In this document: positions 33,437 to 64,000 of the stretch, piece by piece
How positions within the stretch are numbered: the first letter of the stretch is position 1
Layout: each line of letters starts with the position of its first letter
NCBI RefSeq assembly: GCF_004210375.1
Contig: NC_134831.1
Location: 98,959,522 to 99,023,521 of the forward strand
Length of the DNA: 64,000 nt
DNA from: Tachypleus tridentatus
Lineage: Eukaryota
Direction of reading: 5' to 3'
The notes under the pieces: model-generated
Told to the model about the DNA's origin: nothing
Seen by the model: only the letters and a program-made list of their open reading frames with translations
Database searches by the model: none
Position numbers and translations under genes: made by a program

Positions 33437-34120
33437 GAGGTGTTTGTTGAAGATCTGCAATTTTTCTGGTGTGACCAATTATATGAAGCATAGCAAACCC
33501 ATCAATCAACAAGAAGAACATGAGGTTTCCACTGATGGTGTGGCCAATCATAACTCAGTTGATATTTGTCCAATTTGATAATAACCGTAAGTTGAAATTG
33601 TCATTTCTCATCATATACTAAATTCTTTACAAGTTTCACAAAAATCAGAAAATCCTGCATTTTTTACATTTGATCCCTGCTACGGAGGTGCTTCCGGTTG
33701 AGAGAAAGTTAGATCATGTGTTAACAACAACAGAAGATATTGATTATTTACTATACACTCATGTCATTTCTTCTCAAGCTCATATCAATCCACTTCAGAT
33801 TTACCAATCAAGTGAACAACTTCATTCATTGTATTAACTAACTGAAATGATGAGCCTTGTGTGCTCAATCATAGTTAACGTTCTGCATGAAATGCATTGT
33901 CTCATTAATAGGGCTACTTAAACATATTTAGCTGTCCACATATTTTGTAATGAGCTTCTATGCATTTAAATGTAACAATAAAATTTCATACAGCTGGTAA
34001 TATCATTTTTAATAAATAGAACTAACTTAACATAGTGTTGAAACACTTAAGGATGGCAAAGTATTGAAATTTTTTTCACATTTAAGCAAAAAGTTATAAT
34101 TTTCATGTACTGAAAATATA

Positions 34121-35819
34121 TTTCTGATATGTATTTCCCTCTGCTCGTAAGATTAGCTATTCTAGGTAAGTGCTGCCCTCTATGTAAAAGTTTTTTCTTT
34201 ACACATGCCACAAGCCTTCTCTCCTCAATTGAAATTAAATGATTTCAACATGTCTCTCATGTAACTCATTATGTGTCACCTCTCCACTGATAGAAGCACA
34301 GACTACTCAAATGATGTATGTGACTCCCACTATGCACCTTTACTGAACTATCAGTTTAAAGTCACAGAAGACAGGTACACTCAAAGAGTGAGAGAAAAAA
34401 GTGTGAGTGGAGTATAGGAAAATTATAACTTCCGACACAAGATTAGCTAGAATTTGATTGATTAAGAGGAAGGACTGGTGCATGGAAAGAACAGATGTAT
34501 TCTTCAAAAGCATCTGAAGGATACCTCCACAGATAAAGAAAATTTGAAGAGAGGAACCACACCACTCCTGACTAGATATACTCTTCACCCATGTGTGGAA
34601 TGTGTACATCTGAGTGGGGAAAATGTAGCAGTAAAGTGATCTAACCAAAGAAGGATAATGTAATTCAATCTCACAATAAAAAAAATGGATAAACAACAAT
34701 GTTCCCCTGGATGTAGAGTGGTTATGGCACAGTGAACCATATTCGGTAAGACAATAACTTCCAAAACCTCTTCACAGGGTACCGACATCTTCACCAACCC
34801 TATTAACTAGAGAACTGAAAACTACTCTTCATTCCTGGATAGAAGCAGGATTGGCTCTGAACTATTGATCTGGAAATATGACATCCAGTTTTGAAAGGAT
34901 GTCTATTGTTGCTTGCAAACAACTTCCCCAACTGTGATACACATTGGAACCTTTCAAATGGCAAGAACATCCCCATAAGAAGAGATAATGAAAAATTGCC
35001 AAGGATAAAACCAGAACAATCCCATGTACCACAGCTGTGACCCACAACAGAAACAGAGAAAATCAAGGAAGGAAGACAGAGAACCCAAAACCTGTGTGAG
35101 GACTTACGTTGATTGGTTCACTTTAAATCCAACACCAGGCCACAGGGTACAAACGACCATGCAAAGGTAGGATGAGGGTTTCCCATCAAAAAGGTAAACT
35201 GCATTTGCGACGACTCAACTTCAGAGGGCATGTAAATGGTATCAGGAGGCCAAGTTGTACCCTGTAACACACAATCTCCTGATGCATAAAAACAAAATTA
35301 TCATCAGGTCACCCACACCTGAGGCTTGCCAAAAACTCTAGTTGCTGGTGTAGTCTCCAATATGGTATGGTTAAATTCTGAATTCATTGCATAGAAAGGT
35401 TCAACCAAACTTACATGCAGAAAGAATGCAACTTGAATCAACTGATAAACATAAATATAAAAACTGAGTTGAATAAATTAAACTATGTTAAGAAATAACC
35501 ACTTTGTGAGGAAAACAAAGTCAAACATGCAGAAATAAAGAACAAAACAGCATGCCTGAACGCAAGTGCTGCCAAACTTCAAAATAATAGTTTGTTAGAG
35601 TCACACAGAGGGAATCATATGTGTCATGTTAGTATTATATGCTCTCACTGATGGAGAGATGATGCATGATGATTCACATGAGAGACATGTTGGAATTATT
35701 TAATCCCAATAGGGGGAGCAGAAGGCTTGTGCCATAAGTAAAATAAAAATGTCATATAGGAGGCAGCAATAAATGAAAACAGTTAATCTTGTAAACAAAG
35801 AAAAGTACTGTATCAGAAG
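34121..35819. mobile_element. Non-autonomous element (~1.7 kb) bounded by ~180-bp terminal inverted repeats (left ~34121-34300, right ~35640-35819; roughly 75 percent identical in inverted orientation)
   Basis: Left arm ...ctgccctctatgtaaaag..acacatgccacaagccttctctcctcaattgaaattaaatgatttcaacatgtctctcatgtaactcattatgtgtcacctctccactgatagaagca. Reverse complement of right arm ...ctgcctcctatatgacatttttatttacttatggcacaagccttctgctccccctattgggattaaataattccaacatgtctctcatgtgaatcatcatgcatcatctctccatcagtgagagca. Outermost ends ttctgatatgta / tactgtatcagaag also pair. No clear target-site duplication; internal ORFs have no recognisable domains. Confidence 0.5.
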
Positions 35820-36942
35820 CTACACAATGGGCAACCTGTGCTGTGCTCACAGTGGGTATCAAAACCCAATATCTAGAATTGTTAGTTTGTAGGCATACTG
35901 CTGAGCCACTGGGAAGCACACTACTCATGAATTACTACACAGCTAGTGTTACATACATGAGCTAATTACCTGTTCTTGAATTCAAAATGCAAGTACTTTA
36001 AGTCAAAGCATGCATATTAAGTTAAGATTCTTACTGTCTTTTTCTAAAATTTCCTGAACAAATAGTCAAGAAGTCATGCATGTATGTCATTTATCAAGTC
36101 CCTTTTGTTTTAGCCTACAAAATATGGTAGTTAGATTGTTAAAAATTCTGAGAATTTAGTATGTAAAAATAAGTGTGACATAAATTATAATCAGTAACTT
36201 TATATCAACAACCACTTCACTGAATACTAAAGACAATTTTCTAACAATCTCATTAAATAACTTTGTATATATAAAACTGTGGAACAAAAACTTGCAGAGT
36301 TCTATTAATATTTCAAGGTCATCAGATAAACTGTTATTTTATAATCGTCTTTCTTAAGAGGCTTTGACTTCCTTCTTGTTTATCTAAGAGTAAAACTTAT
36401 TTAATAAAATATTTTTTTCACATATACTTCCTTTGTCATAAGTAAAACCAAAAATATATATATTTAAATATCTTGTAAACACTTTACTACAATAAACAAG
36501 TTTTTAATTTTGTTGGGTTGTTTTCTTGTAGTTGAGGCTTCATCCCATTCTAAATCTATAAAATATTTATAAGTGTATTTGTCTATCTTATGATTTGTTT
36601 TCACATGACAGCTACAAAACTTTGATATGCTTTTCCATGAACTAAAATAAATAAAACAGTTTTTGAGGATTTATGTTTCAATAAATGATCCATTCTCAGA
36701 TAAACTGATAAAAATTATATGAAGCTATATTTTAAAAGACATTGTTAAACATAATGATGTTTGTGCAGTGAGCTTGTGAAGTTAAGTGTAGATGTTTTTC
36801 GTATAATTAAGTAGAATTAGTCTGATGTTATGAATTTTACATTATAATATATAACACTCATGGAAATGGCAGTGTGAACACTAAATGTTACCTATTGCAA
36901 TTATATGTTAATAAGTTACGTATATTTTATAAAATTCTTTAC

Positions 36943-37097
36943 CTTTCATTGTTTTTCCGAACGTAGTTTTGTGGTCCAACTTCGACTCTTGTTACGTTAG
37001 TCGTCTGATCTAACACGTGCAAATAGTAATACGTGGGAACACGGTAGATGCCATCATCATCACTTTGGCATCTTAAATTGTGTTTTGTTCCTGCCAT
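36943..37097 (-). CDS. MVP: Major vault protein, first coding exon: ATG at 37097-37095, 51 codons plus 2 nt (phase 2) to a GT donor at 36942-36941 (..AATGAAAG|gtaaag)
   Basis: Minus-strand translation is MAGTKHNLRCQSDDDGIYRVPTYYYLHVLDQTTNVTRVEVGPQNYVRKNNE(R). It aligns to the MVP N-terminus (human ..[36 protein letters not shown]|VLFAP..) with identical HVLDQ..NV.RVEVGP..Y.R..NER spacing. The exon ends exactly where R would be completed, followed by a consensus donor. An in-frame TGA lies 8 codons upstream of the ATG. At 52 aa it falls below the ORF-track cutoff. Confidence 0.7.
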
Positions 37098-38065
37098 CTC
37101 AGCAAACAATACAGCAAAACTTCATTCCATCAGACTTTACAATAGAAATGAAAAACAAGTAAAGTTATCCAATGCCCAGTTTTTATACAAATGTACATGT
37201 AAATATAAAAACTAACATTAAACCATGGTAACTTGCATACAGTATAAATCAAGTTTAGGAGAGTTATGAGGAATTAATACATTTTTATTAAGTTGAAATC
37301 ACACGACCACAACTCTATAGTTATATTCTTCTTTTAAAGTAACTTAGAGAGTGTCTTTGACAGATGAATTAATATACTTCTTGTGCTTTTATAAGCCAAA
37401 AAATACTGTCCAAGATAAACCCAAAACATCAGAAGTCCATTAAAAGTATGGGTCACCACCAGCGTTACTCCTAAGCAGCACGGCCACAGAATAACCAATC
37501 AAGTATGAAGCACTTAATTATTCTATACATACACATTCTCAGTAATGGTCAGGAGTCTCATCACACTGAAAGTCCTAATGAATTGGGCAATTAATAGGCC
37601 TAAAGCCCAAATGACCACACATTGATACTATTACATATAAAAAATTTGTTCTGTACATAAATTAAAAATGTTAGAGGGAACATTGATCACCACAAACTGA
37701 TGTGTTAATACAGAACACAATAACCATCATCACAATATATACAGAAAGAACAACGAAATATATAGTTTACTGACATCTAACAGTTCAAGTTGATGGCCTA
37801 AACCATACACCTTGGATGAAAACACAATGTTTAATAACACTACAAATGTTTGCTCAATAGGCAAGTTATATTTTCCAATTTCAGGATTCAGTATTTTAAA
37901 GTCTATCAAAGTGTCTATCAATTTTAAATAAGAATACTTAAGCACTTAAGACTTCCTTTATCAAGTTTACTAATTTTATATATGAATGTCAACAATGCCA
38001 ACATATGAATGCTGTGTCTGTGATGAAGTAGTGAACCAGCGTTCTGATCAAATCTTATTATGTAA

Positions 38066-40674
38066 CAACTGGGTCATTCCATCTCAAATCATCCAGAGGG
38101 CTACAGGCGACCCCAACAGAATGCCTTGAAAAAGTTCACATGTGCTCATCTACCCATATAATGAAAAACTGCCAAAGATTAGATCAATATCTCTAATAGT
38201 TTCTGATTTACAGCCCTGTAAAATGTAGGTAATTTTGTTTTATTTTTGGCAAGAGTAATGGTGGTAGAATGCTGAGATTTACTACACTGACTGAATTAAT
38301 CTCACAGAATTCAAACATGGTCTCAAACCAAGTTTATCTCTCTTAGGAATTTCATAGTGAGGCTGTAAAATCACCTGAAAACCCAAAATTGTAAGAAACA
38401 TTGGTTTCTGTAATAAGTCATAGCCCTAAGACTTAATATGATACAAAGCTGAATATTGTTTTCTAATTTCCTATAACATATCAGTTGATAAATCAGCAAT
38501 TGTTGTTATTAAAAGTCTGTTAGATCTCCTGTACAAAAATGTAGCTGCAAGCAACTTTTTATGATGTAGCTCAAAATAGCCCTACTTCAGGCCACAGTTT
38601 GACCATGTCACCAGCTATTCAGCCTTTTCAGATTTTTACCATATATTCTTACATCACTGAATATGATCTACAAAAAAAAATCAGGATGGTGTACAACCTA
38701 ATTTTTGAGTTATAATTTTTTGAAAGTATCCTCTGACCATACGTTTTTTTTTTTTTTAAAAAATTCAGTTCAGGCGTGTTACTTTGTGCAAATATACCAT
38801 ACAATTTTGAAAAATACCTGTCAAAATTTTATGAATCCCACTTGAATATTCTAACCAGCCTTTCACAATGTAAAATAATGAAGTTGTAAGATACAAGAAA
38901 GAATTAATTCATTTCTGAACAAGTTTATTGGCATAACTAGTTAGATCACATGGCAATGCAAATATATTGTGTATGCATTACAGATATGGCTGAGTTTAAG
39001 AATCATAATATAATTAATTCAAAGGTAAATCAGACACAAAAAGCTCAGTGCTACAACAAAGGATAACTGAGAAAGAGTATAGTCACACCAAACTGCAATA
39101 ATCGTGACAATGAAATGTTCCAAAAACTGCTTTGGCGATAAATCAGCCTTAACAACATCAAATAAACATTGCTTTGTTCAGAAAGCTTGAATAAATTTCT
39201 GAAATTCAAGTTTGACTATGTTGAGGTCACTTTGACTTAGAACATAGTGGCATGCATATCTGCCTTGCATGGTAGGTGCACTATCAGACAAAGAATATGT
39301 TGGAAAGGAATCCAGCTTTCATCTTTATGTGACCTTGCAGGCCAAGAGAACAGTTCATTTCTTGATTTCTTCATAAATAACACCAACACATTGGAATGTT
39401 CATCTGATCTATCTTTTATGTTTCACACAACCATTCATGATCGTATATGCATGCTACATATTTCCCTGGCTGATAATTGTCATTGCTATCATTAGACTCT
39501 ATTTGAGCTGCTGTAGCATCACTTTCACTGCTACTACCAACAGTTACAACTGTGTACACATCATCACCTTCTCATATAGAATGTGTTGGTAGAATAAAGC
39601 TATGATGTGACCTAATACCTGCCACAGTTTTGTGTTTTTCATAGTGCTCAAGTTGATCAAACTTTACATAATTCTGCAGGACTGATTCCTGATTGACAAG
39701 AAAGAACTGAATGCCCTGAATGTGGTTCTTTGCCCAATGGTGCATATCAGAGACACTTAAAAATTGATAATTTATTATTTTTCACAACCTTGATTTTTTT
39801 TTAAGATCATGTTCAGAGATGTAAGAATATATGGTAAAGGCTGATTAGAATATTTCAATGGGATTCATAAATTATTTCAAAATTGTATGGATATATTTGC
39901 ACACAGTAACACACCTGACTTGAAGTGGTTTTTTTTTCCAAGTAAACAACATATGGTCAGGGGATACGTTAAAAAACTATAACTCAAAAAGTAGGTTGAA
40001 CACCATCTTGATTTTTATTGTAGATCATATTCAGAGATGTAAGAATATATGGTAAAAATCTGAAAAGGCTGAATAATTGGTGACATGGTCAAACTGTGAC
40101 CTGAAGTAGGGCTATTTTGAGCTACATCATAAAAAGTTGCTTGCAGCTACATTTTTTTACAGGAGATCTAACAGACTTTTAATTACAACAATTGCTGATT
40201 TATCAACTGATATGTTATAGGAAATTAGAAAACAATATTCAGCTTTGTATCATATTAAGTCTTAGAGCTATAGCTTATTAAATAAACCAATGTTTTTTTA
40301 TGATTTGGGGTTTTCAGGTGATTTTACAGCCTCACTATGAAAATCCTAAGAGAGATAAACTTGGTTTGAGACCATTTTTGAATTCTGTGAGATTAATTCA
40401 GTCAGTGTTGCAAATTTCAGCCTTCTACCACCATTAGTCTTGCAGCTTTAAGCAGCCAAAGTTGCACGAAAATGAATTTGCCAAAAATAACAAAAAATTA
40501 ACTAAAGTTTATAGGGCTCTAAATCAGAAGCTATTAGAGATATTGATCTTATCTTTGGTAATGTTTCATTATATGGGTAAATGAACACTTGTAAATTTTT
40601 TCAAGGCATTCCGAAGGGGTCACCTGGAAAATTGTCCAAAATCTGGATGATTTGACATGGAATGACCCAACTGT
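38066..40674. repeat. Foldback-type large inverted repeat: left arm ~38066-38866, right arm ~39835-40674 (about 800-840 bp each, ~85 percent identical as reverse complements) separated by a ~0.95 kb spacer. The right arm carries an extra ~38 bp internal duplication (39803-39840 vs 40020-40066)
   Basis: Example pairings: left gggtcattccatctcaaatcatccagagggctacaggcgaccccaacagaatgccttgaaaaagttcacatgtgctcatctacccatataatgaaa vs reverse complement of right gtttcattatatgggtaaatgaacacttgtaaattttttcaaggcattccgaaggggtcacctggaaaattgtccaaaatctggatgatttgacatggaatgaccc. Left gccacagtttgaccatgtcaccagctattcagccttttcagatttttaccatatattcttacatcactgaatatgatcta pairs with right tagatcatattcagagatgtaagaatatatggtaaaaatctgaaaaggctgaataattggtgacatggtcaaactgtgacc. 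Confidence 0.8.
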
Positions 40675-41458
40675 ATCCAGAATTAAGCCATCTAAAGACT
40701 ATCTTTTATCCTAAATGTCACAATATTATTTCACTGGTTCATATCCAAATCAATAACAACTACACAAAAGTAAAGAACAATAATAATATAAACAACCAGA
40801 CAAAGTTATCTCTTGATTTTTAGACAATTATAACATGTCTACATAAATTAGTGATATTTACAATTGTATGTTTTTCACTTCAAATAAGTGCTAGACCTTA
40901 CTGTTAAATTTGATTCAGAGAAACACGTTAACGATTAATTTGCAGTAGTAGCAATTGTATCATAAAAGAGCTATCTTGACAATATTCTGCTACAAAAACT
41001 TTCAACATATTTCTTCCAGCTTTTTGTATCTGAAAAAACAAAACACCTGTTCATCCCTACATATCGTCCTTAGCCTAATATTCAACCTACTTAGAATTAT
41101 ATCCCCAGAGTAACATCATGCCAATCTTTATTAATTACCCTTACATGCAACATTAGCCCCTATGTGAATAATAAAACTTTTGTCAATGCTACACCCTTTA
41201 TATTACCTCACTTACCTTATCATTTATGTCCTTCAACCACACTTCTGGTAATATGATTAACTAAGACATAGTTTCAAAAGCAACTACCAAATGTTTACAT
41301 TTGAATAATGACATGTTTGTCTGCTATACCACTGTCCTAATCTTAGAATTATCTCTGAGGTGCATATGTATTTCACCAGCTTTTCTTCTAAACTACTTAT
41401 ATAACAAATTCCTCATAGGTACATAACTGTTAGTAACATGTAAAGCACAAAAAAAAAT

Positions 41459-41733
41459 TAAACAAAAGGTAACTGTAACTATCCCTCTAATAACTGTTAA
41501 ACAAAAGGTAACTTTAACTATCCTTCTAATAACTGTTAAACAAAAGGTAACTGTAACTATTCTTCTAATAACTGTTAAACAAAAGGTAACTGTAACTATC
41601 CTTCTAATAACTGTTAAACAAAAGGTAACTGTAACTATTCTTCTAATAACTGTTAAACAAAAGGTAACTGTAACTATCCTTCTAATAACTGTTAAACAAA
41701 AGGTAACTTTAACTATCCTTCTAATAACTGTTC
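41459..41733. repeat. 39-bp minisatellite, ~7 copies (unit aacaaaaggtaactgtaactatccttctaataactgtta)
   Basis: Direct reading. The minus-strand ORF 41393..41779 with the 13-aa periodic VIRRIVTVTFCLT peptide is a by-product of this repeat. Confidence 0.92.
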
Positions 41734-44372
41734 GGGTTCCAATTTTTTTTATATACACAAAATATGTGTGAAGTTTCACATTTTGGTTCCTTTCTTTATA
41801 ATAACTGTAGTAATGGACAAAATAAAAGGTTTACTCAATAGAACTCACCATATGTTTAGAGCTCCAAAGGTAAATAAAACAAAACAATAATTTGAGGGTT
41901 AACAAATTTTCAACCAATGATTATAGTGCATTTTGATAATACTGAGATATATTACATGCAATCAGAATTGACTGCACTCATTAAAAGAGCATATATCATA
42001 AACAAATGTGTTAGTTAATTCACAATCTATATAGTGTAAACTTACATTGGACATTTATCCTAAAATATACATGTCTGTTACAGAACTATACCCTGTCTGT
42101 TAAGAATAATTTGTTGAAACCAAAATTTACAAATATTACTATTACATTATATTAGATTAGATATATTTAAACAACAGTATAATTACACCTTTTCCTAGCT
42201 TTCTTATGATAATTACTTCTAATGTGGTTGGATGTTGTACAAATATCATATTGTACAGACATATTCTAAAATAAAAGTGCATATCAGTGAAGAATTCATA
42301 CCCAGTGTTTGTCTGTAACTTTAACATTCCTTTTCTTTATTAAACGTTAATAATAACAAAACCACTGTTTGTTAATTTAATCCCAGTAAAACTATGACAA
42401 AGTAATACTATACTATTACTAGCAGTATCGCTTGCACTGCAAATAGCACAGGTGAGAAAAATATTAAGTATTGACGTAAGTATAATTAATTTAATTATTA
42501 AATACTTTAATATGTTCATACTCTAACTCACCTCTTTAACATTTTTTTAAGTACAAGTTAACTAAATTTAAAATTTAACTTAAACTTTAATAAATTAATG
42601 TTACAGCATTACTTTGAGCACTTGTAAAAATGTTTGCTAAATACCGCCCTTTAGTTACGATATCAAAAACAAACAAATTGACCAATTTTATAACTCCGCG
42701 TTTGTATAGAAAACAGTGGATATTAATATTCGTACATGTATTACTAGTTTTCTCAACTCGTTCCTACCAGAAACAGGGAAGACGTTTATACTTTCACAGT
42801 CCAATATTTCACCCTGTATTCATATTATTATTACACAAACTATTGCTCAAAATGGTGAAATAAAATACTATCTACTCGTCCCAGCCGAAGATAAATTACG
42901 ATGTTGTTTTGTTTGAAGTTTCATATTGTAATCCATGAGAGGGCCCTAAAAATGACCGATTTGTTCCATCTGAGGTAGCAAATTCTAAAGTTTATGTTTT
43001 ATGAAAACGTAATTTCGATATGAACTGTTTTGGCATGATAAACATCTGGTTAAAATCGATTTTTTTATATTTTTTCATCGTCTTCTCCGCATCCCCTATG
43101 TTTTGTGCAGTGCCAGTGCCAAGAGGGGGATTTGTCCCGAGAGAACGCTCTGCTCCAAATTGACCCTCCAGTAAAAATTTGAAAAATTACCGAAGAAGTA
43201 AATATGAAGAGTCTGTTGGCTAAAATAAGAAAATGTATGCTCTTTAACGGGACTCAGATTTGGGTTATTAATCCACCTTGATAAAACCTTTGAGACAAAT
43301 AGTCCCTCCAAACACAAATAACATCTGTCACCTCAGAAGGAGACCTTGTCCCTCACTTGCTTCACCACTGAATAAAATCTGATGCTTCTGCTGGATTTGT
43401 GATTTTCTAACCTCGAGGGGGAGTCTTCCAAGTAAATGTCATTTCTAAGTGTTAGTACTTACCTCCATCCGCTTTGCTTCAAACTTAGTACTAAATTAAA
43501 CTGTGTGACTGAAAAAAGAAAAAGACTATGAAATTTCATGTTGATATTTACTACAGCTTAGGAGTCATTTCCGTTTTATCTCAAAATGATCAACTTTTTT
43601 TATTGCAAAACATTCAAAATAATATTGATTATTAGTGAAAAATTGGAAATAAATATGCCGGTAATCACTAATTTTGTATGGTTTACATAAATCCAATATT
43701 TGCATGGGAATAACGTAGCGTTTTGGAACAACGTGGGACCTCTTGAGCTGCCTCAGCTGTTCCATATTCTAAACTAAACTACAACTATTGACAAATATAT
43801 TTTTAAAAGATCTTAAAGCTGGTCCTTATCATTCATGTACTTATTAAACTTTTCAAAACTTATTTACGTTTACTTCATTCACATCTGAAGACAACTACCC
43901 TGTTAGAAAAATGAAAATGCCATAGCATGATGCTACCTTTCCAAAATTTATACTTGTACCCCCTAATCGTACTATCCTCATTGTCAAAAAAAAAAGATTA
44001 TGCATTAACACTATCAATTTCCTTTATAATTTAAATACCCCAATCATATCCTCCCTAACTTTTCTTTTTCGAGAAAACACAGTTTGATAGATTTCACTCT
44101 CTCCTCATATGACAACCTTTCCATCACAGACATCATTCAAGTAACCCTTCGCTGAACCCTCTTCAATATTTCAGTGTTTTTCCTTAAGTAAGGATTCCAA
44201 TATAATGTTCAAAATGGGGCCTAAACAGCCACTTAGACAAGGAATTAAAAACCTGTCTGCTTTCTGGGTGTCGTGTATTGACATGACCGATATAATGCTA
44301 TTCTTAATCCGTTTTTCAGGTGAATATTACTGGCTTCTATATTTAAGCTTGCTTTGTGCCATCATTCCTTGA

Positions 44373-45132: not shown

Positions 45133-45392
45133 TTGGTTTGATTTGTTTTGAATTTCGTGCAGAGCTACACGAGGACTATCTGTGCTAGCAGTGTAAGACA
45201 AGAGGGAAGGCAGCTAGTCGTCATCACCCACCGCCAACTCTTGGGTTACTCTTTTACCAACGACTAGTGGGATTGGCCGTAACAGTATAATGTCCCCATG
45301 GCTGAAAGGGCGAGCATGTTTGGTGTGACGGGGATAGGTCAGTGGTAATTCTAATACCTTACAATGCTAAAAATCGGCTTGCGATACTCCTA
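45133..45392 (-). mobile_element. tRNA-derived SINE copy (minus orientation), variant with a different tRNA-like head
   Basis: Body tttgaatttcgtgcagagctacacgaggactatctgtgctagcagtgtaagacaagagggaaggcagctagtcgtcatcacccaccgccaactcttgggttactcttttaccaacgactagtgggattggccgtaac... is shared with the other copies. The head region ...ggggataggtcagtggtaattctaataccttacaatgctaaaaatcggcttgcgatactcc differs from the main family. Confidence 0.6.
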
Positions 45393-45703: not shown

Positions 45704-45969
45704 GGTTTGTTTTTTGGAATTTCGCACAAAGCTACTCGAGGGCTATCTGTGCTAGCCGTCCCTAATTTAGCAGTGTAAGACTAGAGGAAAGGCAGCTAGT
45801 CATTACCACCAACTCTTGGGCTACTCTTTTACCAACGAATAGTGGGATTGACCGTAACATTATACAACCCCACGGCTGGGAAGGCGAGCATGTTTAGCGC
45901 GACGCGAGCGCGAACCCGCGACCCTCGGATTACGAGTCGCACGCCTTACGCGCTTGGCCATGCCAGGCC
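45704..45969 (-). mobile_element. tRNA-derived SINE copy (minus orientation), flanked by ~9-bp target-site duplication aaaacctgg (45695-45703 and ~45972-45980)
   Basis: gtttgttttttggaatttcgcacaaagctactcgagggctatctgtgctagccgtccctaatttagcagtgtaagactagaggaaaggcagctagtcattaccaccaactcttgggctactcttttaccaacgaatagtgggattgaccgtaac...gcgaacccgcgaccctcggattacgagtcgcacgccttacgcgcttggccatgccaggcc. Poly-T (poly-A on minus) at the left, tRNA-like head at the right; direct repeats on both flanks. Confidence 0.8.
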
Positions 45970-46792
45970 TTAAAAACCTGGAGAGAAATATGTAACAATG
46001 TTTAAAGAACACTGCTTTCGAGATAGGTCTAGGATCAAAGGCCATGTCATAGCGTTTCTTGACTAACATTCAAACTGTTATTGAACTATTATTTTATGAA
46101 TTTATGTTATTAAGTTTGGGATATCAAACTATAGATTATAATTCAAATTTTCCTGTTATACATTATTTAGTTTGTTAGTTTAAAGGTAAATATTAAAAAC
46201 ACATCTAAACATCGACTTTTGTTTCTCATGGTGTGTTGAATGCATTACTGGTTCAAATTATATGTTTGTGAAGTCAAAATACTCAGTGTGTAACTTTGTA
46301 CGAATTATAAACTCAAATTACCAATATTGACAAACTAGAATACAAAATAATTACATCCCACCTTTTCTGTTTGCTGAGATATCGCTCTTGTACTGAATCA
46401 AATACAATGGTCCACTCACCACTTTCCAGTTTTGAAAACTGTCCCTTTTATACAGTCATATCTCTATATGACATGTAATAACCAATAGAAAGCAAAGAAT
46501 GCTTCTTTAGTGTTTTTTCTTAGCCATTTTCAAATACACTGCTGGCCAAAATCTTAAGGCCAATGAACATAAAGAAAAATATGCATTTTGCGTTGTTAGA
46601 CTCAACCACTTATTTGAGTAGAGCTTCGAAAGATGAAAATAAGAAAAAAGAAAGTAAAAATAAAAACTCTTTTAGCATTTAATAGGGAAAATGTGAACGC
46701 TATGAAATTAGCCTAAATACTAGCTGGTCAAAAGTTTAAGACAATACCAAAAAGAAGTCCTAAACAGGGTAGGAAATGCCAAACAAGAGGTC

Positions 46793-47801
46793 TCAGTAGT
46801 GAGTTGTACGGCCGTCATTGCAAATAACTTCAAAAATTCGCTTTGGCATGGTCGATATAAGCGTTTGCAGAAGGCTGGCTGGAATGTTATTCAAAGTGGT
46901 GAAGATGGCTTCACAAAAATTATGCATTATTTGGAATTGACGTCCATTTCTGTAGATTTCCCTTGTCATCCACCCCCAAACATTGTCAACGGGGTTCAGT
47001 TCAGGCGAACACGCTTGATGGTCCAAAAGAATCACGTTATTCGCCATGAAAAGTCCTTTGTCCTGCGGGCATTGTGGATTGCAACATTGTCCTGCTGAAA
47101 GATCCAGTCCACACAAGCGAGGGCCTTCAGTCAATAAGGATGCTCTCTCCAACATGCCAATGTAGCCTGCTGCTGTTTGACAGCCCTATATAACCTGAAG
47201 CTCCATTGTTCCATGAAAGGAGAAAAGCACCCCAGATCATGAAGGAACCTCCTCCACTGTGTCGTGTAGAAAATGTCTTCGGTTGGATATCCTTATCGTG
47301 CCAGTAACGTTAGAAGCCATCTGGACCATCCAGGTTAATTTTTTTCTCATCAGAGAACAAAACATTCTTCCACTTTTCTACATCCCATGTTTGGTGCTTC
47401 TCAGCAAAGTTTAACCGAGCTGTTTCATGGTGTGGAAGGAGACGTGGCCTTTGAAGATAGTTACAGTTTTTAAAGCCTTTCTCTCGTATATGCTGTCTTA
47501 TTGTTCTTGAGCCGCATTCTACGTCCGTAAAAGCCTTAATCTAGTTTGACGATCGGCTGGTGTCTTGCCGGACGACCCGTCGAATCCTCCTGCTCAACAC
47601 CAGCAAAATTTTCTTGGGCCGACCACTTGAAATTCTCGTTCCATATCCCTCAGGGTCTTTTAAGAAATTTGCAACAGCAGTTTTAAGACGTCCAATCTCA
47701 CCAACGATGGCACGTTGAGAGAGACCTTGCTTTTGCAGCTCCACAATTCTGCCACGCTCAAACTCTGTCAACGTTTTAGCCTTTGCCACGTATTTACCCA
47801 A
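46793..47801 (-). pseudogene. Tc1-like transposase, frameshifted into at least two ORFs (N-terminal helix-turn-helix ORF 47541-47801; C-terminal catalytic ORF 46793-47155)
   Basis: N-terminal part MGKYVAKAKTLTEFERGRIVELQKQGLSQRAIVGEIGRLKTAVANFLKDPEGYGTRISSGRPKKILLVLSRRIRRVV.. resembles Tc1/Sleeping-Beauty-type paired-like DNA-binding domains. C-terminal part ..NNVILLDHQACSPELNPVDNVWGWMTREIYRNGRQFQIMHNFCEAIFTTLNNIPASLLQTLISTMPKRIFEVICNDGRTTHY aligns to the Tc1 motif ..[25 protein letters not shown]...MPRR...AVI.AKGG.TKY. The central catalytic region is broken by frameshifts, and the third catalytic residue reads D (NPVD) instead of E. Confidence 0.8.
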
Positions 47802-48116
47802 TGTAACACAGGAGATGTCAGTGGGAGATATTGATAACGCTAATGCTTGAACACAAATGACTAAATTTCGTTACGTGTTTACAGATTAACGCTTCGTTTC
47901 TGTACGGTTTTAAACGTTTGACCAGCTAGTATTTAGGCTAATTTTATAGTGTTTACATTTTCCGTATTAAATGCTAAAAAGTTTTTTAATTTTATTTTCC
48001 TTTTCTTATTTTCATCTTTCGAAGCTCTACTCAAATAAGTGGTTCAGTCTAACAACGCAAAATGCGTATTTTTTCTTTATATTCATTGGCCTTTAGATTT
48101 TGGCCAGCAGTGAACA

Positions 48117-48396
48117 TTAACTTGTTTGTTTGTTTGGAATTTCGCACAAAGCTACTCGAGGGCTATCTGTGCTAGCCGTCCCTAATTTAGCAGTGTAAAA
48201 CTAGAGGGAAGGCAGCTAGTCATCACCACCCACCGCCAACTCTTGGGCTACTCTTTTACCAACGAAAAGTGGGATTGACCGTCACATTATACGCCCCCAC
48301 GGCTGGGAGGGCGAGCATGTTTAGCGCGACGCGGGCGCGAACCCGCGACCCTCGGATTACGAGTCGCACGCCTTACGCGCTTGGCCATGCCGGGCC
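48117..48396 (-). mobile_element. tRNA-derived SINE copy (minus orientation) nested in the Tc1 3' inverted repeat; 11-bp target-site duplication agcagtgaaca at 48106-48116 and 48397-48407
   Basis: Sequence ttaacttgtttgtttgtttggaatttcgcacaaagctactcgagggctatctgtgctagccgtccctaatttagcagtgtaaaactagagggaaggcagctagtcatcaccacccaccgccaactcttgggctactcttttaccaacgaaaagtgggattgaccgtcac...gcgaacccgcgaccctcggattacgagtcgcacgccttacgcgcttggccatgccgggcc. An identical 11-mer on both sides includes the Tc1 terminal CAGTG. Confidence 0.8.
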
Positions 48397-50298: not shown

Positions 50299-50563
50299 AG
50301 GCCCAGCATGGCCAAGTGGTTAAGGCACTCGACTCGTAATCCGAGGGTCCCGGGTTCGAATCCCTGTCAGACCAAACGTGCTCGCTCTTTCAGGCATGGG
50401 GGCGTTATAATGATACGACCAATCCTACTATTCGTTGATAAAAAGAGTAGCCCAAGAGTTGGCGGTGATGACTAACTGCCTTCCGTCTAGACTTACACTG
50501 CTCAAGTGGGGACGACGAGCGCAGATAGCTCTTGTGTAGCTTTGCGCGAAATTAAAAAAAAAA
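50299..50563 (+). mobile_element. tRNA-derived SINE copy (plus orientation): best-preserved tRNA-like head, then family body, then A-rich tail
   Basis: GGCCCAGCATGGCCAAGTGGTTAAGGCACTCGACTCGTAATCCGAGGGTCCCGGGTTCGAATCCCTGTCAGACC followed by the reverse complement of the shared body (..gatacgaccaatcctactattcgttgataaaaagagtagcccaagagttggcggtgatgactaactgccttcc..gcagatagctcttgtgtagctttgcgcgaaatt) and aaaaaaaaaa. The anticodon arm is non-canonical (CTCGACTCG duplication), so this is not a functional tRNA gene. Confidence 0.8.
50308..50362 (+). promoter_or_regulatory. Putative internal Pol III promoter of the SINE: A box TGGCCAAGTGG (50308-50318) and B box GGTTCGAATCC (50352-50362)
   Basis: Matches the consensus A box TRGCNNAGTGG and B box GGTTCGANTCC with tRNA-like spacing. 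The other SINE copies carry mutated B boxes (GGTTCGCGCCC). Confidence 0.5.
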
Positions 50564-52586
50564 CAATTAGTAATTTATGACATCCAAAAAAGTTTCTTTT
50601 AAGGAAGGAGAAACGACTCTTAAAAACCCAAATCATTTCCTTTTAAAAAAACCTTTATTTTTATTACATAAATACAAGACAAAATAATTCTCTACGCACA
50701 GTTTCAATATATTTCTGAAGGCACTATTTTAGTGTTAAAGCTTAAGAATAAATTTTTGCAATGAAAACAATAACAACTACATAATATATATATATGTTAT
50801 GACATGTCATATTAAAGTTATTTTAACATGACTTACTTTTAAGGCAAAATCTTGATTCGTATTTATGTTACAAATAAAAAACGTTTAAAGTTATATTAAT
50901 AATAAAAAACAATAATTATGTTTACATTTTTATCTACTGAAACTTGAACTATCGAAACTTTTGACACATAAAATACTTGGAGTTTTTCATTCTTATATAA
51001 TAACATCTTTACTTTTCTTATTTCTACAAGATAACACAGATGGCGTTTACAAGTCTTACAGGGATAATATGTAAATACACATCTGAAACACTACAATATC
51101 CATAATACTTGCTTATCCGTAACATCGTGTCAAAAATTTTAAAACTATATTAAAATTATAGATATTATTTTAAAAAAACTACTGATACCCAAATATTTTA
51201 AAATGAATTCACGAGCTTCATTTTGAATAAAATGAAATGGGTTGCTTTTATTAAAATAATAAATGATAAAACCCGAATTTAGTATATTTCAAAATAATGT
51301 TTACGATTAAAAACATAAGGGTGTAATATATTGAAATAACTAATTGTAGTTTGAAAAATTTTTGTGCAATAAATAACAAAATTCAATTGTTGTGACAATA
51401 AAATAATTGAAATCTTTATCTTTCTATTTTATTTTTTAACACATCGAAAACCTAAATAAATATCTGAACAGTTACAACACATATTTAAACAATTTCATAA
51501 AAACTGTACCAGTTTAAACATTAGATGATAAATTCAGTGGACTTTTGATTATTGAGATATCTGAACAATTTTCTCAAGATTTTATAATCAAAGGAAGTTG
51601 TCATATAAATATTATGTAGATAAGTTTTACAAAAACTTTTAAACGAAATTACAAAAACAACTATTGGATATAAGCTAATGATTATTGTGACAATTTGCTG
51701 AATAATAATTGATATTAAAAATTGTCTAACCTCACGTCTTGGGAAGATTTCATGTAAATAATACATTATTAAAATATTTTATGACAGATAAATAATTTCC
51801 AGAAAAGCAGTAGTTGTATTACAATAAAAATGGTCAATCACTTTCTTCATTTCTTGGAAATTTGTGAAGAATTTATGTAGACACAGAAATCTAGGGGGAG
51901 CAAAAACATATAAAAATAAAATCCTAAATTCTCTGTCACTGATATTGTGTTCTCACGTATGATTAAAGCAAAAAGAACTAAATAAACTTAGTTAGAGATT
52001 ATTTAATTTTATGATTTCTGTAGTTTCTAAACAGTCCCTTTCTTTCCTTTTCTTTAAGTGTTAGGTTCTCATAGAAGAATAATTTCATCCCAAAGTAGTT
52101 TGTGACTTGTTTCATACTGATGATACATTAAGACAGAAATCTCGTCTAAAATACGTAGATGATATCTTCAACGTATGGCAACATGGGAAAGAGACACCAC
52201 ACTACGCAATTTCAATGAATTCTTAGACACGTTAAAACCTAATATCATAATCTTCATACATGAAATAGAATCCAACAATTCTCTTCCATTTTAGATGTGA
52301 CTGTAAAAAGAGATAATGATAAAGTATACATAGGTAATACCATTCCATCACCATGTTGCCACACATAAGATCTAATCACCATTTATCACAGAAAATATCC
52401 TCCTACTTCATTTACATACATTGTGTCAGAAAACTTGACATCAACAGAGAAGACTTATTTATTGATTTGAACTATTTAAATAACACACTACTATCTAGAG
52501 GTTCCAATCCCAATATCACTGGTAGAGCTTGTATCAAACTTCAAAACAGTGTAAAATATTATGTTAACTCTGATTTATCACATATA

Positions 52587-53043: not shown

Positions 53044-53980
53044 ACGGTAAACAAAATGCAACAAATTTGTTTCATTCCCTTTTATGTCAGAAACTGCGAA
53101 TGAAATAACTAAATATTTTAATAACAGGAGCATTGACATAAAAACTGTATTCATAAAAATTAACATCTTACTACCTGATCCAAAAGAATCCATATTAAAA
53201 GAACAAAAACAGGGTATATATATATAATATCCTATGTGAATGTGTAAAGAAATACACAGAACAAATAACACATCTCTATGAAATAAGGTGAAAGGAACAC
53301 CACAGTCACATGTGTAGAGGTGATTTCCAGTAACTTTCTTAACATATCATTAATAAGAAGCAGGTCACAAGAAATTTTAGGGTAAAATTCTTTTCTTAAC
53401 ACCAACCCAAAACTAAAAAAATGAAAGATATCGTTTAGAAACTACAGAAATAATAAAAATAAACAATCATTCACTAGACCATGATAATGGCCCTAGCAAC
53501 ATCAGCCATATTTGGCAATGTTTATTCACTGTTCATACACTTGACCTCTACTCATATCCTGTCACCTAATAACAAGGTTTCCATCAAATTTCATCTCTAT
53601 TGTCTTTGCAATTATATATAAACCTTGTATTATTTACAATTGATCATACCTAAAGAAAAACCTGCGTTCTGTCGAAAACACATAGTATGTTTCACCATTT
53701 CAGTTAACCTTTTCCTCATGCTTATAAATTGTTTGTCTACCTGTTATTATATTAGTATAAATATTTACTCATTTTTTCTAGGACTGTTATTGTCAATACA
53801 TCAGTCAAGTTGCTCACAGATAGACCTATAAAACAAAAGGTATTCTTTGTTCTAGTTTAAATGGTGTGAGAAAACAAAATAAAAAAAAAGTCTCCTTAAA
53901 GGTAATGAACAAGCTAGAAATGAAGATACAAGAGTCTGACAGAGATTGCCCATTTCAAAGATTAAGACAATAATAACTTT

Positions 53981-54938
53981 ACAGTTCTAGTTATTACCTA
54001 CCACAGTAAGATGGCCATACAGTTCTAGTTATTACGTATGTACTTACCACAGTAAGATGGCCATACAGTTCTAGTTATTACGTATGTACCTACCACAGTA
54101 AGATGGCCATACAGTTCTAGTTATTATGTATGTACCTACCACAGTAAGATGGCCATACAGTTCTAGTTATTACGTATGTACCTACCACAGTAAGATGGCC
54201 ATACAGTTCTAGTTATTACGTATGTACTTACCACAGTAAGATGGCCATACAGTTCTAGTTATTACGTATGTACCTACCACAGTAAGATGGCCATACAGTT
54301 CTAGTTATTATGTATGTACCTACCACAGTAAGATGGCCATACAGTTCTAGTTATTACGTATGTACCTACCACAGTAAGATGGCCATACAGTTCTAGTTAT
54401 TACGTATGTACCTACCACAGTAAGATGGCCATACAGTTCTAGTTATTATGTATGTACCTACCACAGTAAGATGGCCATACAGTTCTAGTTATTACGTATG
54501 TACCTACCACAGTAAGATGGCCATACAGTTCTAGTTATTACGTATGTACCTACCACAGTAAGATGGCCATACAGTTCTAGTTATTACGTATGTACCTACC
54601 ACAGTAAGATGGCCATACAGTTCTAGTTATTATGTATGTACCTACCACAGTAAGATGGCCATACAGTTCTAGTTATTACGTATGTACCTACCACAGTAAG
54701 ATGGCCATACAGTTCTAGTTATTACGTATGTACCTACCACAGTAAGATGGCCATACAGTTCTAGTTATTACGTATGTACCTACCACAGTAAGATGGCCAT
54801 ACAGTTCTAGTTATTACGTATGTACCTACCACAGTAAGATGGCCATACAGTTCTAGTTATTATGTATGTACCTATCACAGTAAGATGGCCATACAGTTCT
54901 AGTTATTACGTATGTACTTACCACAGTAAGATGGCCAT
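53981..54938. repeat. 46-bp minisatellite, ~21 copies (unit ccacagtaagatggccatacagttctagttattacgtatgtaccta), with three unit subtypes (..cgtatgtaccta, ..tgtatgtaccta, ..cgtatgtactta)
   Basis: Direct reading. The T-subtype recurs at 54125, 54310, 54448, 54632 and 54862, that is every 3-5 units. The plus-strand ORF 54862..55119 starts inside the last units and is an artefact. Confidence 0.95.
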
Positions 54939-57620: not shown

Positions 57621-58557
57621 GGTAAGAAAGACAAAAGTTCCAGCTTTATAGATATAATAGTGATATATAAGCTAATGAATAAGTTTTGCCAGACACAGTT
57701 TAGACTTTATAGACATGGAACTATTACATAATAAGACATAATCAGTTAAGGGAGACAAAGTTTCAACTTTATAGATATAATAGTGATATATAAGCTAATT
57801 AATAAGTTATGCCAGACACAGTTTAGACTTTATAGACATGGAACTATTACATAATAAGACATAATCAGTTAAGGGAGACAAAGTTTCAACTTCAAAGATA
57901 GTGAACTGCTACATGAGAAGATACAATCACTTAAGATAAGCCAAAGTTGTAACTTCAAAGATAGGGAACTGCTACATGAGAAGATACAATCCCTTAAGAT
58001 AAGCCAAAGTTGTAACTTCAAAGATAGGGAACTGATACATGAGAAGATACAATCACTTAAGGTAAGCCAAAGTTGTAACTTCAAAGATAGGGAACTGATA
58101 CATGAGAAGATACAATCACTTAAGGTAAGCCAAAGTTGTAACTTCAAAGATAGGGAACTGATACATGAGAAGATACAATCACTTAAGGTAAGCCAAAGTT
58201 GTAACTTCAAAGATAGGGAACTGCTACATAAAAAGATACAATCATTTAAGGTAAGCCAAAGTTGTAACTTCAAAGATAGGGAACTGCTACATAAGAAGAT
58301 ACAATCACTTAAGATAAGCCAAAGTTGTAACTTAAAAGACAGGGAACTGCTACATGAGAAGATACAATCACTTAAGATGAGCCAAAGTTGTAACTTCAAA
58401 GATAGGGAACTGATACATGAGAAGATACAATCACTTAAGGTAAGCCAAAGTTGTAACTTCAAAGATAGGGAACTGATACATGAGAAGATACAATCACTTA
58501 AGATAAGCCAAAGTTGTAACTTCAAAGATAGGGAACTGCTACATGAGAAGATGCAGT
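57621..58557. repeat. Complex intronic minisatellite: 122-bp unit x2 (57627-57870) followed by a related 63-bp unit x~10.6 (57889-58557; unit ggaactgctacatgagaagatacaatcacttaagataagccaaagttgtaacttcaaagata)
   Basis: Direct reading. The 63-mer shares its ...aagggagacaaagtttcaactt.aaagata core with the 122-mer. Minus-strand ORF 57869..58525 (218 aa, 21-aa periodic LKLQLWL.LSDCIFSC.SSLS) and plus-strand ORF 58377..58559 are repeat artefacts. The array lies in the intron between the myosin exons at 59066-59207 and 57374-57444. Confidence 0.9.
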
Positions 58558-59065
58558 GAATTAAGGGAGAATGTATTTGCTTTTAAAGTTTGAAATACAT
58601 ACAGATAGAGAGGAATAAAGATCTGTGAGATAAACCTCCATTTTGGATGTAAAGACAAAGAGAATTCTAGAATAGAGGTTGTTAGTATTCCCTTTTGATG
58701 CAGATAGTCTCTACAGGGGTAGGAGATTGTTCAGTGAAACATATTTGTGGAAGTACAGCAGAAACGTGTTAAGAAAAACAAAGAAAGATGAAATAGAAAA
58801 CACTTTCCACTAAAGGTATAAGAAACACACAGAGACGGATACTCATGAAAACAATAGTATCACCCAATAGAAACCTTAAAAAATGAACCACAGATATAGT
58901 ATAAGGTATATGTAGCACTTTGATTTAAAGGCTATACGAAAGTAAAAAAAGAAAAAAAAACACATTGTTTATCACTTTGCTTTAATGCTGTAAAAAAAAA
59001 AACCTCATTGGTTGGCACTTTGTTTTTAAGGTTCTGGTTTTGTTAAATTAAAAAAAAACAATTAC

Positions 59066-63400: not shown

Positions 63401-63887
63401 CACATTAAATGAAACCCTGTAAAAGTTAAAAATGCACATTTTGACACCCATCTCTGAATACAGGGTTAAAGTATTAAAAAAAAAAACATCTTAGGAAGTT
63501 TATCCATGAAATGAACAAAATTAAATACAAAGCTAAGAAGGACTATAAGAAAACATAAAACTGATACATGAAACTTCTACATCTGTTTAATTTTATGCTA
63601 TAGTGATAGGTTTTTTAAATGGTTTTATTTGCACACCCCTTGTGTTATATCTCTCAGTATAAACAAAGTGAATCTAGATATATTCAGACATTTGGCTGTT
63701 TAACAAATACATACATAAAGCTTTCTTTCTGTATCAAAAACAGTAAATCTAGATTGCCTTCCACAAACTTTATTCACATCCAGGTCTTTGGCCATTGGCT
63801 ACAACTTTGGATCTGACATCAGTTTAAAAAAATCTTACTTGTGTTAACAAAACAAGATCTGCACTTGTACACAAAACAGCTGTGGAC

Positions 63888-64000
63888 TGTCATGTACATC
63901 TAATTACATTTCCATATCATGACTCACTACAGAATGATTCCTGTCATGTACATCTAATTACATTTCCATATCATGACTCACTACAGAATGATTCCTGTCA
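63888..64000. repeat. 54-bp tandem repeat (>=2 copies, runs off the window end)
   Basis: ctgtcatgtacatctaattacatttccatatcatgactcactacagaatgattc repeated exactly at 63888-63941 and 63942-63995; a third copy starts at 63996. Confidence 0.8.

Follow-up and report, generated by a model that had tools for sequence, protein, structure and literature searches.

The window analysed here is a 64,000-nt stretch of AT-rich eukaryotic DNA from Tachypleus tridentatus (contig NC_134831.1), and all coordinates in the text are window coordinates. On its minus strand it carries the first coding exon of a gene for the major vault protein (MVP), recognized by homology, by a profile and by its open frame (36943-37097), and its left half is occupied by an array of a 63-bp satellite. 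An earlier note on this DNA had described an MVP start exon at 37097-36943 ending in a phase-2 GT donor and transcribed toward a satellite block that measures 33 kb or more on that side, with a 1.7-kb inverted-repeat element between the donor and the satellite. On re-reading, the coordinates, strand, phase and donor were all found to be correct, as was the orientation toward the array. The satellite consists of one 63-bp array that spans 1-33437 and reaches the left edge of the window, and the inverted-repeat element is real (34122-35818). The sequence itself shows unique DNA giving way to satellite 3.5 kb past a valid donor.

The exon (37097-36943, minus strand) is 155 nt long and consists of 51 codons, beginning with the ATG, and 2 nt, ending in phase 2. 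Its translation is MAGTKHNLRCQSDDDGIYRVPTYYYLHVLDQTTNVTRVEVGPQNYVRKNNE(R), the last residue being split by the donor, and it contains the N-terminal signature of MVP, R-I/V-P-P-Y-x-Y-x-H-V-L-D-Q-N/T-T-N-V-T-R-x-E-x-G-P. Among 1.84 billion representatives, phmmer found 196 homologues at E<=1e-3, the top one with 71% identity, and the named proteins among the matches are major vault proteins. Scored with a profile of MVP N-termini, the exon reaches E 2e-21. With human MVP, used purely as a probe, tblastn finds a match over residues 2-42 (56% identity, E 3e-11). Another 11 full-length MVPs (570-1017 aa) align to the exon with E values of 1e-11 to 1e-14, and their N-termini are 57-69% identical to it. 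Over ~40 residues, the N-terminus encoded by the exon is 56-73% identical to those of other MVPs, and its closest relatives show 66-73% identity. No disabling lesion was seen: the frame has neither stop nor frameshift, and the ATG and the GT donor are intact. Judged by this similarity, which goes well beyond chance, 36943-37097 is genuinely a 5' coding exon of MVP, and the share of the MVP coding sequence inside the window is ~6%. With respect to constraint on the protein, the exon's profile score ranks in the 14th percentile among 149 distinct homologues. Moreover, rare residues occupy three conserved columns, namely T22 (98% of homologues have P), N44 (92% have T) and N49 (89% have D), which hints at relaxed constraint or at a lineage-specific change.

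The exon ends in ...GAAAG and is followed by the 5' splice donor GTAAAG (36937-36942, minus strand). An in-frame TAA overlaps this donor directly after the exon, so that retention of the intron would give a 52-aa peptide. A word-index protein search with this peptide returned nothing. The boundary was compared with 47 related MVP loci, four from ENA assemblies (L001-L004) and 43 from JGI metagenomes and metatranscriptomes; three independent relatives lie on long contigs (L001, L002 and L003/L004). In L001 the exon ends in ...AATGAACG/GTTAGT, and the boundary after NE[RK], CG/GTTAGT, is in phase 2, the same as AG/GTAAAG in the window. In L002 and L003 the boundary reads ...GAAAAG/GT, 1 nt later than in the window and in phase 0. 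Many open reading frame (ORF) read-throughs, one of them mammal-like, diverge right after NE[RKQ], and mammals probably use the same exon boundary. From these alignments the boundary after NER is old and widely shared among MVP genes, and its occurrence in L001-L003 and in the read-throughs supports the donor at 36942. We also observed that MVP has no intron after NER in L005, L008, L016 and L017 (JAAUX.../JAAUY... contigs), which indicates that the intron present in the window, in L001-L003 and probably in mammals is absent in some lineages. A literature search for MVP intron positions found no paper.

On the other side of the exon, a short 5' leader (37098-37136, minus strand) contains two candidate 3' acceptors, ...ctattgtaaAG/TCTG (37136-37135) and ...gtttgctgAG/ATG (37099-37098), which sit 37 and 1 nt upstream of the ATG. 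L001, L002 and L003 each have a pyrimidine-rich tract and an AG 7-24 nt upstream of their ATG. Since candidate AG acceptors precede the ATG as they do in these relatives, the exon is probably the first coding exon, with a non-coding exon upstream.

The window was then screened for the rest of the gene with more than 160 MVP queries in total, 13 of which were near full length, and with the N-terminal profile. In tblastn with 150 homologues at a threshold of E<=100, the exon at 37097-36943 was the sole match in the whole window. The profile, run with filters off against all stop-to-stop ORFs of at least 8 aa in the six frames of the window, matched only the first coding exon, a scan of the window for PPRHYC-type motifs gave no exon 2, and the 11 full-length MVPs found nothing in the window beyond the first coding exon. 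All MVP query alignments end at 36942 or 36945. Runner-up matches are noise (per-query E>=0.03, profile E>=3.2), and many of them lie within satellite sequence or have the wrong orientation. The candidates at 35378-35310 (E 0.21), 34951-34998 (wrong strand) and 60278-60234 (profile E 3.2) were rejected as being at chance level. A positive control succeeded: in L001-L004 these queries recovered exon 2 (E 1e-12 to 3e-22) together with every later exon. At the level of domains, none of the Pfam families Vault, Vault_2, Vault_3, Vault_4 and MVP_shoulder (vault repeats, shoulder, cap-helix) is encoded in the 64-kb window, and the same Vault and MVP_shoulder families adjoin exon 1 in L001-L004. The gap between donor and satellite (33438-36936, minus strand), presumed to be intron sequence, is non-coding, depleted in CpG (observed/expected ratio, o/e, of 0.16) and free of MVP-like sequence, and its ORFs of at least 58 aa contain no Pfam family. 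The absence of exon 2 from 33437-36942, reported in the earlier note, is thus upheld by homologue, profile and motif searches, and it extends to the whole window.

This situation differs from that of every related locus. In L001, L002 and L003/L004, intron 1 measures ~400, 170 and 80 bp; the complete MVP gene spans 7-10 kb in L001-L004. In the 43 JGI loci, residues 44 onward are directly contiguous. Residues past NER are therefore found within 0-400 bp in all 47 loci, whereas nothing follows in the window for at least 36.9 kb.

The satellite array comprises ~521 copies with 91% matches and runs off the left window end. Monomer lengths are mostly 63-66 bp (63, 65, 66, 64 and others) and vary through a (GA)n block, and dimers recur with a periodicity of 128 bp. 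Alignments of the monomer cover 33,435 of the 33,437 bases, in one orientation and with no non-satellite gap of 15 bp or more. An exon concealed within the satellite was considered and ruled out, since the array contains no island of at least 15 bp and an uninterrupted one-orientation satellite cannot conceal an exon. Identity to the consensus averages 96.7%; it is 94.6-95.1% in the outermost 1.3 kb and 97-99% a few kb inward. The edge of the array is thus slightly more diverged than its interior, which suggests that the junction at 33437 is not brand new. The consensus has no CpG, and the o/e of the array is 0.05. Variants that create CpG (CCCGACC, ACCGA) are concentrated near the right edge. 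A local origin of the satellite was also considered and rejected, as no monomer-like copy is present in 33438-64000. Finally, a 30-mer of the satellite had no match in the JGI metagenomes and its 23-mers had none in the literature.

Read on the sense strand of MVP, the monomer has the form (CT)n-AG/GTATTTGG. Polypyrimidine-AG/GT motifs, defined as (CT)>=4...AG/GT, occur 406 times on this strand and not once on the other, and 352 of the 406 read AGGTATTTGG. These motifs arise because the monomer has a (GA)n block, and we assign no function to them. By their sequence they resemble 3' or recursive splice sites and could act as decoy acceptors; the donor half, GTATTT, is a weak match to GTAAGT. 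We also observed that a phase-2 donor spliced to the AG of the satellite would continue into a frame that is partly open (RYLVYIFVYPGGSGTLDLSLS...).

The distribution of CpG provides a second line of information on the exon. It holds 8 CpGs (o/e 1.25) where the rate in its flanks predicts 1.04 (P ~1e-5), and o/e is 0.16 both in the 3.5 kb downstream and in the 5.4 kb upstream (37098-42500). By codon reading, a synonymous decay path is open to 6 of the 8 CpGs. That they have been kept despite these paths indicates that the exon has not been long abandoned in CpG-depleted surroundings: either selection maintains it, or it is shielded locally, or it arrived only recently, and the retained CpGs argue against a long-dead pseudo-exon. 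The depleted domain is uniform from the satellite edge (33.4 kb) to ~42.5 kb, and o/e rises to 0.6-1.0 at 42501-43500. In invertebrates with mosaic methylation, mCG accumulates in gene bodies (PMC4378273). By analogy, the pattern seen here would fit a germline-methylated gene body belonging to a transcription unit that starts near 42.6 kb. A candidate promoter with a putative non-coding exon 1 can accordingly be proposed at 42526-43250 (minus strand), where the rise in CpG coincides with a TATAAAA (42692-42686, minus strand) and a consensus donor, AG/GTGAGT, with its GT at 42531-42530 (minus strand).

Several other elements surround the exon. The inverted-repeat element between donor and satellite (34122-35818) is an old one, foldback-like or resembling a non-autonomous DNA transposon, with arms of ~245 nt at 71% identity, and no coding capacity was recognizable in it by Pfam searches of ORFs of at least 58 aa. 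Upstream of the ATG exon, in the putative intron of the 5' untranslated region (5'-UTR), lies a 2.6-kb foldback element (38070-40669) with arms of ~800 nt (38070-38863 versus 40669-39836, 84% identity over 848 nt), whose short internal ORFs gave no Pfam match. A degenerate Tc1/Tc3-like DNA transposon (46537-48112) has 222-nt terminal inverted repeats at 90% identity and frameshifted transposase remnants (Pfam HTH_Tnp_Tc3_2, E 5e-7). A CpG-rich tRNA-related short interspersed element (SINE) of ~200-270 bp is present in four copies (45135-45335, 45705-45970, 48122-48396 and 50299-50566); two copies are 93% identical to each other, and two flank the Tc1/Tc3-like element. The head of one SINE (50308-50367) is the single, tRNA-like find of Rfam in the window, and ARAGORN detected no tRNA genes there. 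Tandem repeats comprise a minisatellite of 39 bp x 7 (41458-41732), an array of 46 bp x 20.5 with 98% matches (53980-54938), one of 63/123 bp x ~11 (57623-58566) and a repeat of 54 bp that continues past the right window edge (63887-64000). Among ORFs of at least 58 aa between 33.4 and 64 kb, the search for other genes with Pfam returned only the Tc3-type transposase remnant. The MVP exon is thus alone in repeat-rich, gene-poor DNA. Capture of the exon by a transposon was examined and rejected: the 20-nt inverted repeat that flanks the exon (36819-36838/37117-37136) is a chance one, since 4 of 30 Markov-shuffled 1-kb sequences contain a repeat of this kind.

The explanation that we prefer, with a probability of about 0.45, is that a genuine MVP 5' exon is spliced across an intron of 37 kb or more, filled with satellite, and that exon 2 lies beyond the window. 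Under this explanation, transcription would start near 42.6 kb, ~5.5 kb ahead of the ATG exon, and the transcript would cross a 5'-UTR intron bearing transposable elements (TEs) before reaching the ATG exon at 37097-36943. The conserved donor at 36942 would then open a very large intron, colonised by the old inverted-repeat element and by at least 33.4 kb of the 63-bp satellite, and exon 2 (expected to read ...V-L/V-x-G/A-P-x-x-M-I-x-x-P-P-R-H-Y-C...) and the remaining gene would be found past the left window edge. Both the position of the promoter and the splicing of the exon to exons past the array are what we infer. We prefer this explanation because the exon is intact, its boundary is conserved, its CpGs have been kept and a CpG domain like that of a gene body reaches the array; that the exon is undamaged though the junction is not brand new counts in the same direction. 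Several points weigh against it. An intron of 37 kb or more would be far out of the range of all related loci, and ~400 polypyrimidine-AG sites on the sense strand between the donor and the true acceptor would represent a heavy splicing load. On the other side of the exon, ~30 kb form a gene desert of TEs and minisatellites in which the Tc1/Tc3 remnant is the only Pfam match, and this flank resembles heterochromatin, where gene fragments accumulate. Finally, three or more such rare residues are found in only 6.7% of the 149 homologues. The alternative is a stranded 5' fragment, either a partial promoter-proximal duplicate that was carried into heterochromatin beside the satellite or an MVP gene broken by a rearrangement in intron 1 at the satellite border. 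It would be unlinked to exons 2 and beyond and would yield no more than a 52-aa peptide or a transcript that is non-coding or chimeric. We hold this to be possible, if somewhat doubtful. The lack of any further MVP exon in 64 kb, against an exon 2 within 400 bp in the relatives, speaks for a fragment, as do the repeat-rich and gene-poor surroundings; the three rare substitutions and the 14th-percentile score are compatible with relaxed constraint. Repeated losses of MVP among eukaryote lineages indicate that its disruption is tolerable. However, a fragment has to be reconciled with an exon that has no stop or frameshift and an intact ATG and donor, and with the survival of 8 CpGs amid flanks of o/e 0.16, for which it would need to be young or to have inherited the pattern from its parent locus, whereas the gradient at the array edge suggests that the junction is not very recent. 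The earlier note had offered a stranded pseudo-exon as one of three options among which it made no choice, and this option survives in part: an old, decayed version is disfavoured by the intact exon, the shared boundary and the kept CpGs, but a recent fragment is still live in view of the three rare substitutions. The position effects on a housekeeping-type gene that the note raised are speculative.

It is unlikely, in our view, that the distance is an artefact of the assembly past the junction, such as a contig end in the array, a false join by way of a satellite family with several loci or a mis-sized array, in which case the true intron would be shorter and exon 2 would be on another contig. 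The array does extend off the window edge, it is a single repeat family that is 97% homogeneous on average and as such prone to breaks and mis-joins, and no independent copy of the locus was found in the collections searched (with the 52-aa, 56-aa and transposase ORFs and the satellite 30-mer). Nevertheless, the window shows no runs of N, no switch of orientation and no abrupt change of monomer variant. Moreover, the satellite truly begins 3.5 kb downstream of the donor in any case, so that an artefact would alter the size of the problem and not its nature. Going beyond the preferred explanation, one may ask whether MVP is transcribed through an intronic satellite whose ~400 tandem polypyrimidine-AG/GT junctions are either silenced as decoys or used for stepwise, recursive-type removal. 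The decoy acceptors might be silenced, for instance, by proteins that bind CU tracts, or the array might be removed by recursive-type splicing, and we consider either quite improbable.

Splicing of the exon across the array would make the locus an example of satellite-caused intron gigantism in an ordinary gene and a natural test case for splicing amid hundreds of acceptor-like repeats, and it would imply that annotation pipelines will truncate such genes. Should the ~400 junctions indeed be silenced or removed stepwise, this would constitute a satellite-in-intron system outside the Drosophila Y, with a splice-site-like repeat built in. If the exon is a fragment, the satellite border would be the site of a rearrangement or a duplication, and this lineage may have lost MVP. 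The practical value lies mainly in the annotation of the locus and in the checking of the assembly there.

A giant intron and a stranded fragment are both known kinds of event. Compared with MVP genes elsewhere (human, L001-L004 and the 43 JGI loci), the window is alike in the N-terminus, the NE[RK] boundary and the upstream AG candidates, and differs in having no exon 2 for at least 36.9 kb and in the unusual T22, N44 and N49. Recursive (ratchet) splice sites of long introns, as in Drosophila Ubx, have the form polypyrimidine-AG/GTAAGT. The sense strand of the satellite monomer, (CT)n-AG/GT, likewise places an acceptor next to a GT, a likeness by sequence alone; ratchet sites are one or few and conserved, whereas the satellite offers ~400 tandem copies in which GTATTT is poor against GTAAGT. 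Truncated gene fragments and pseudo-exons occur in satellite-flanking DNA of the pericentromere type, for example in primate pericentromeric duplications. As in the window, an isolated exon with its intron flanks lies near a large satellite among TEs and the rest of the gene is missing; however, such fragments usually have an identifiable parent copy and often defects, whereas the window exon is intact with its CpGs preserved. Satellite-filled introns exist in the Drosophila Y-linked "gigantic" genes kl-3 and kl-5 (Fingerhut et al. 2019, PMC6508621). These are testis-specific dynein genes on a heterochromatic Y with megabases of 5-7-bp satellites, whereas the window has at least 33 kb of a 63-bp satellite with an MVP exon observed so far on one side of the array, and MVP is broadly expressed in other animals. 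If the giant intron holds, kl-3 and kl-5 would nevertheless be its closest known analogue, with coding exons separated by a long block of satellite that is transcribed and spliced out.

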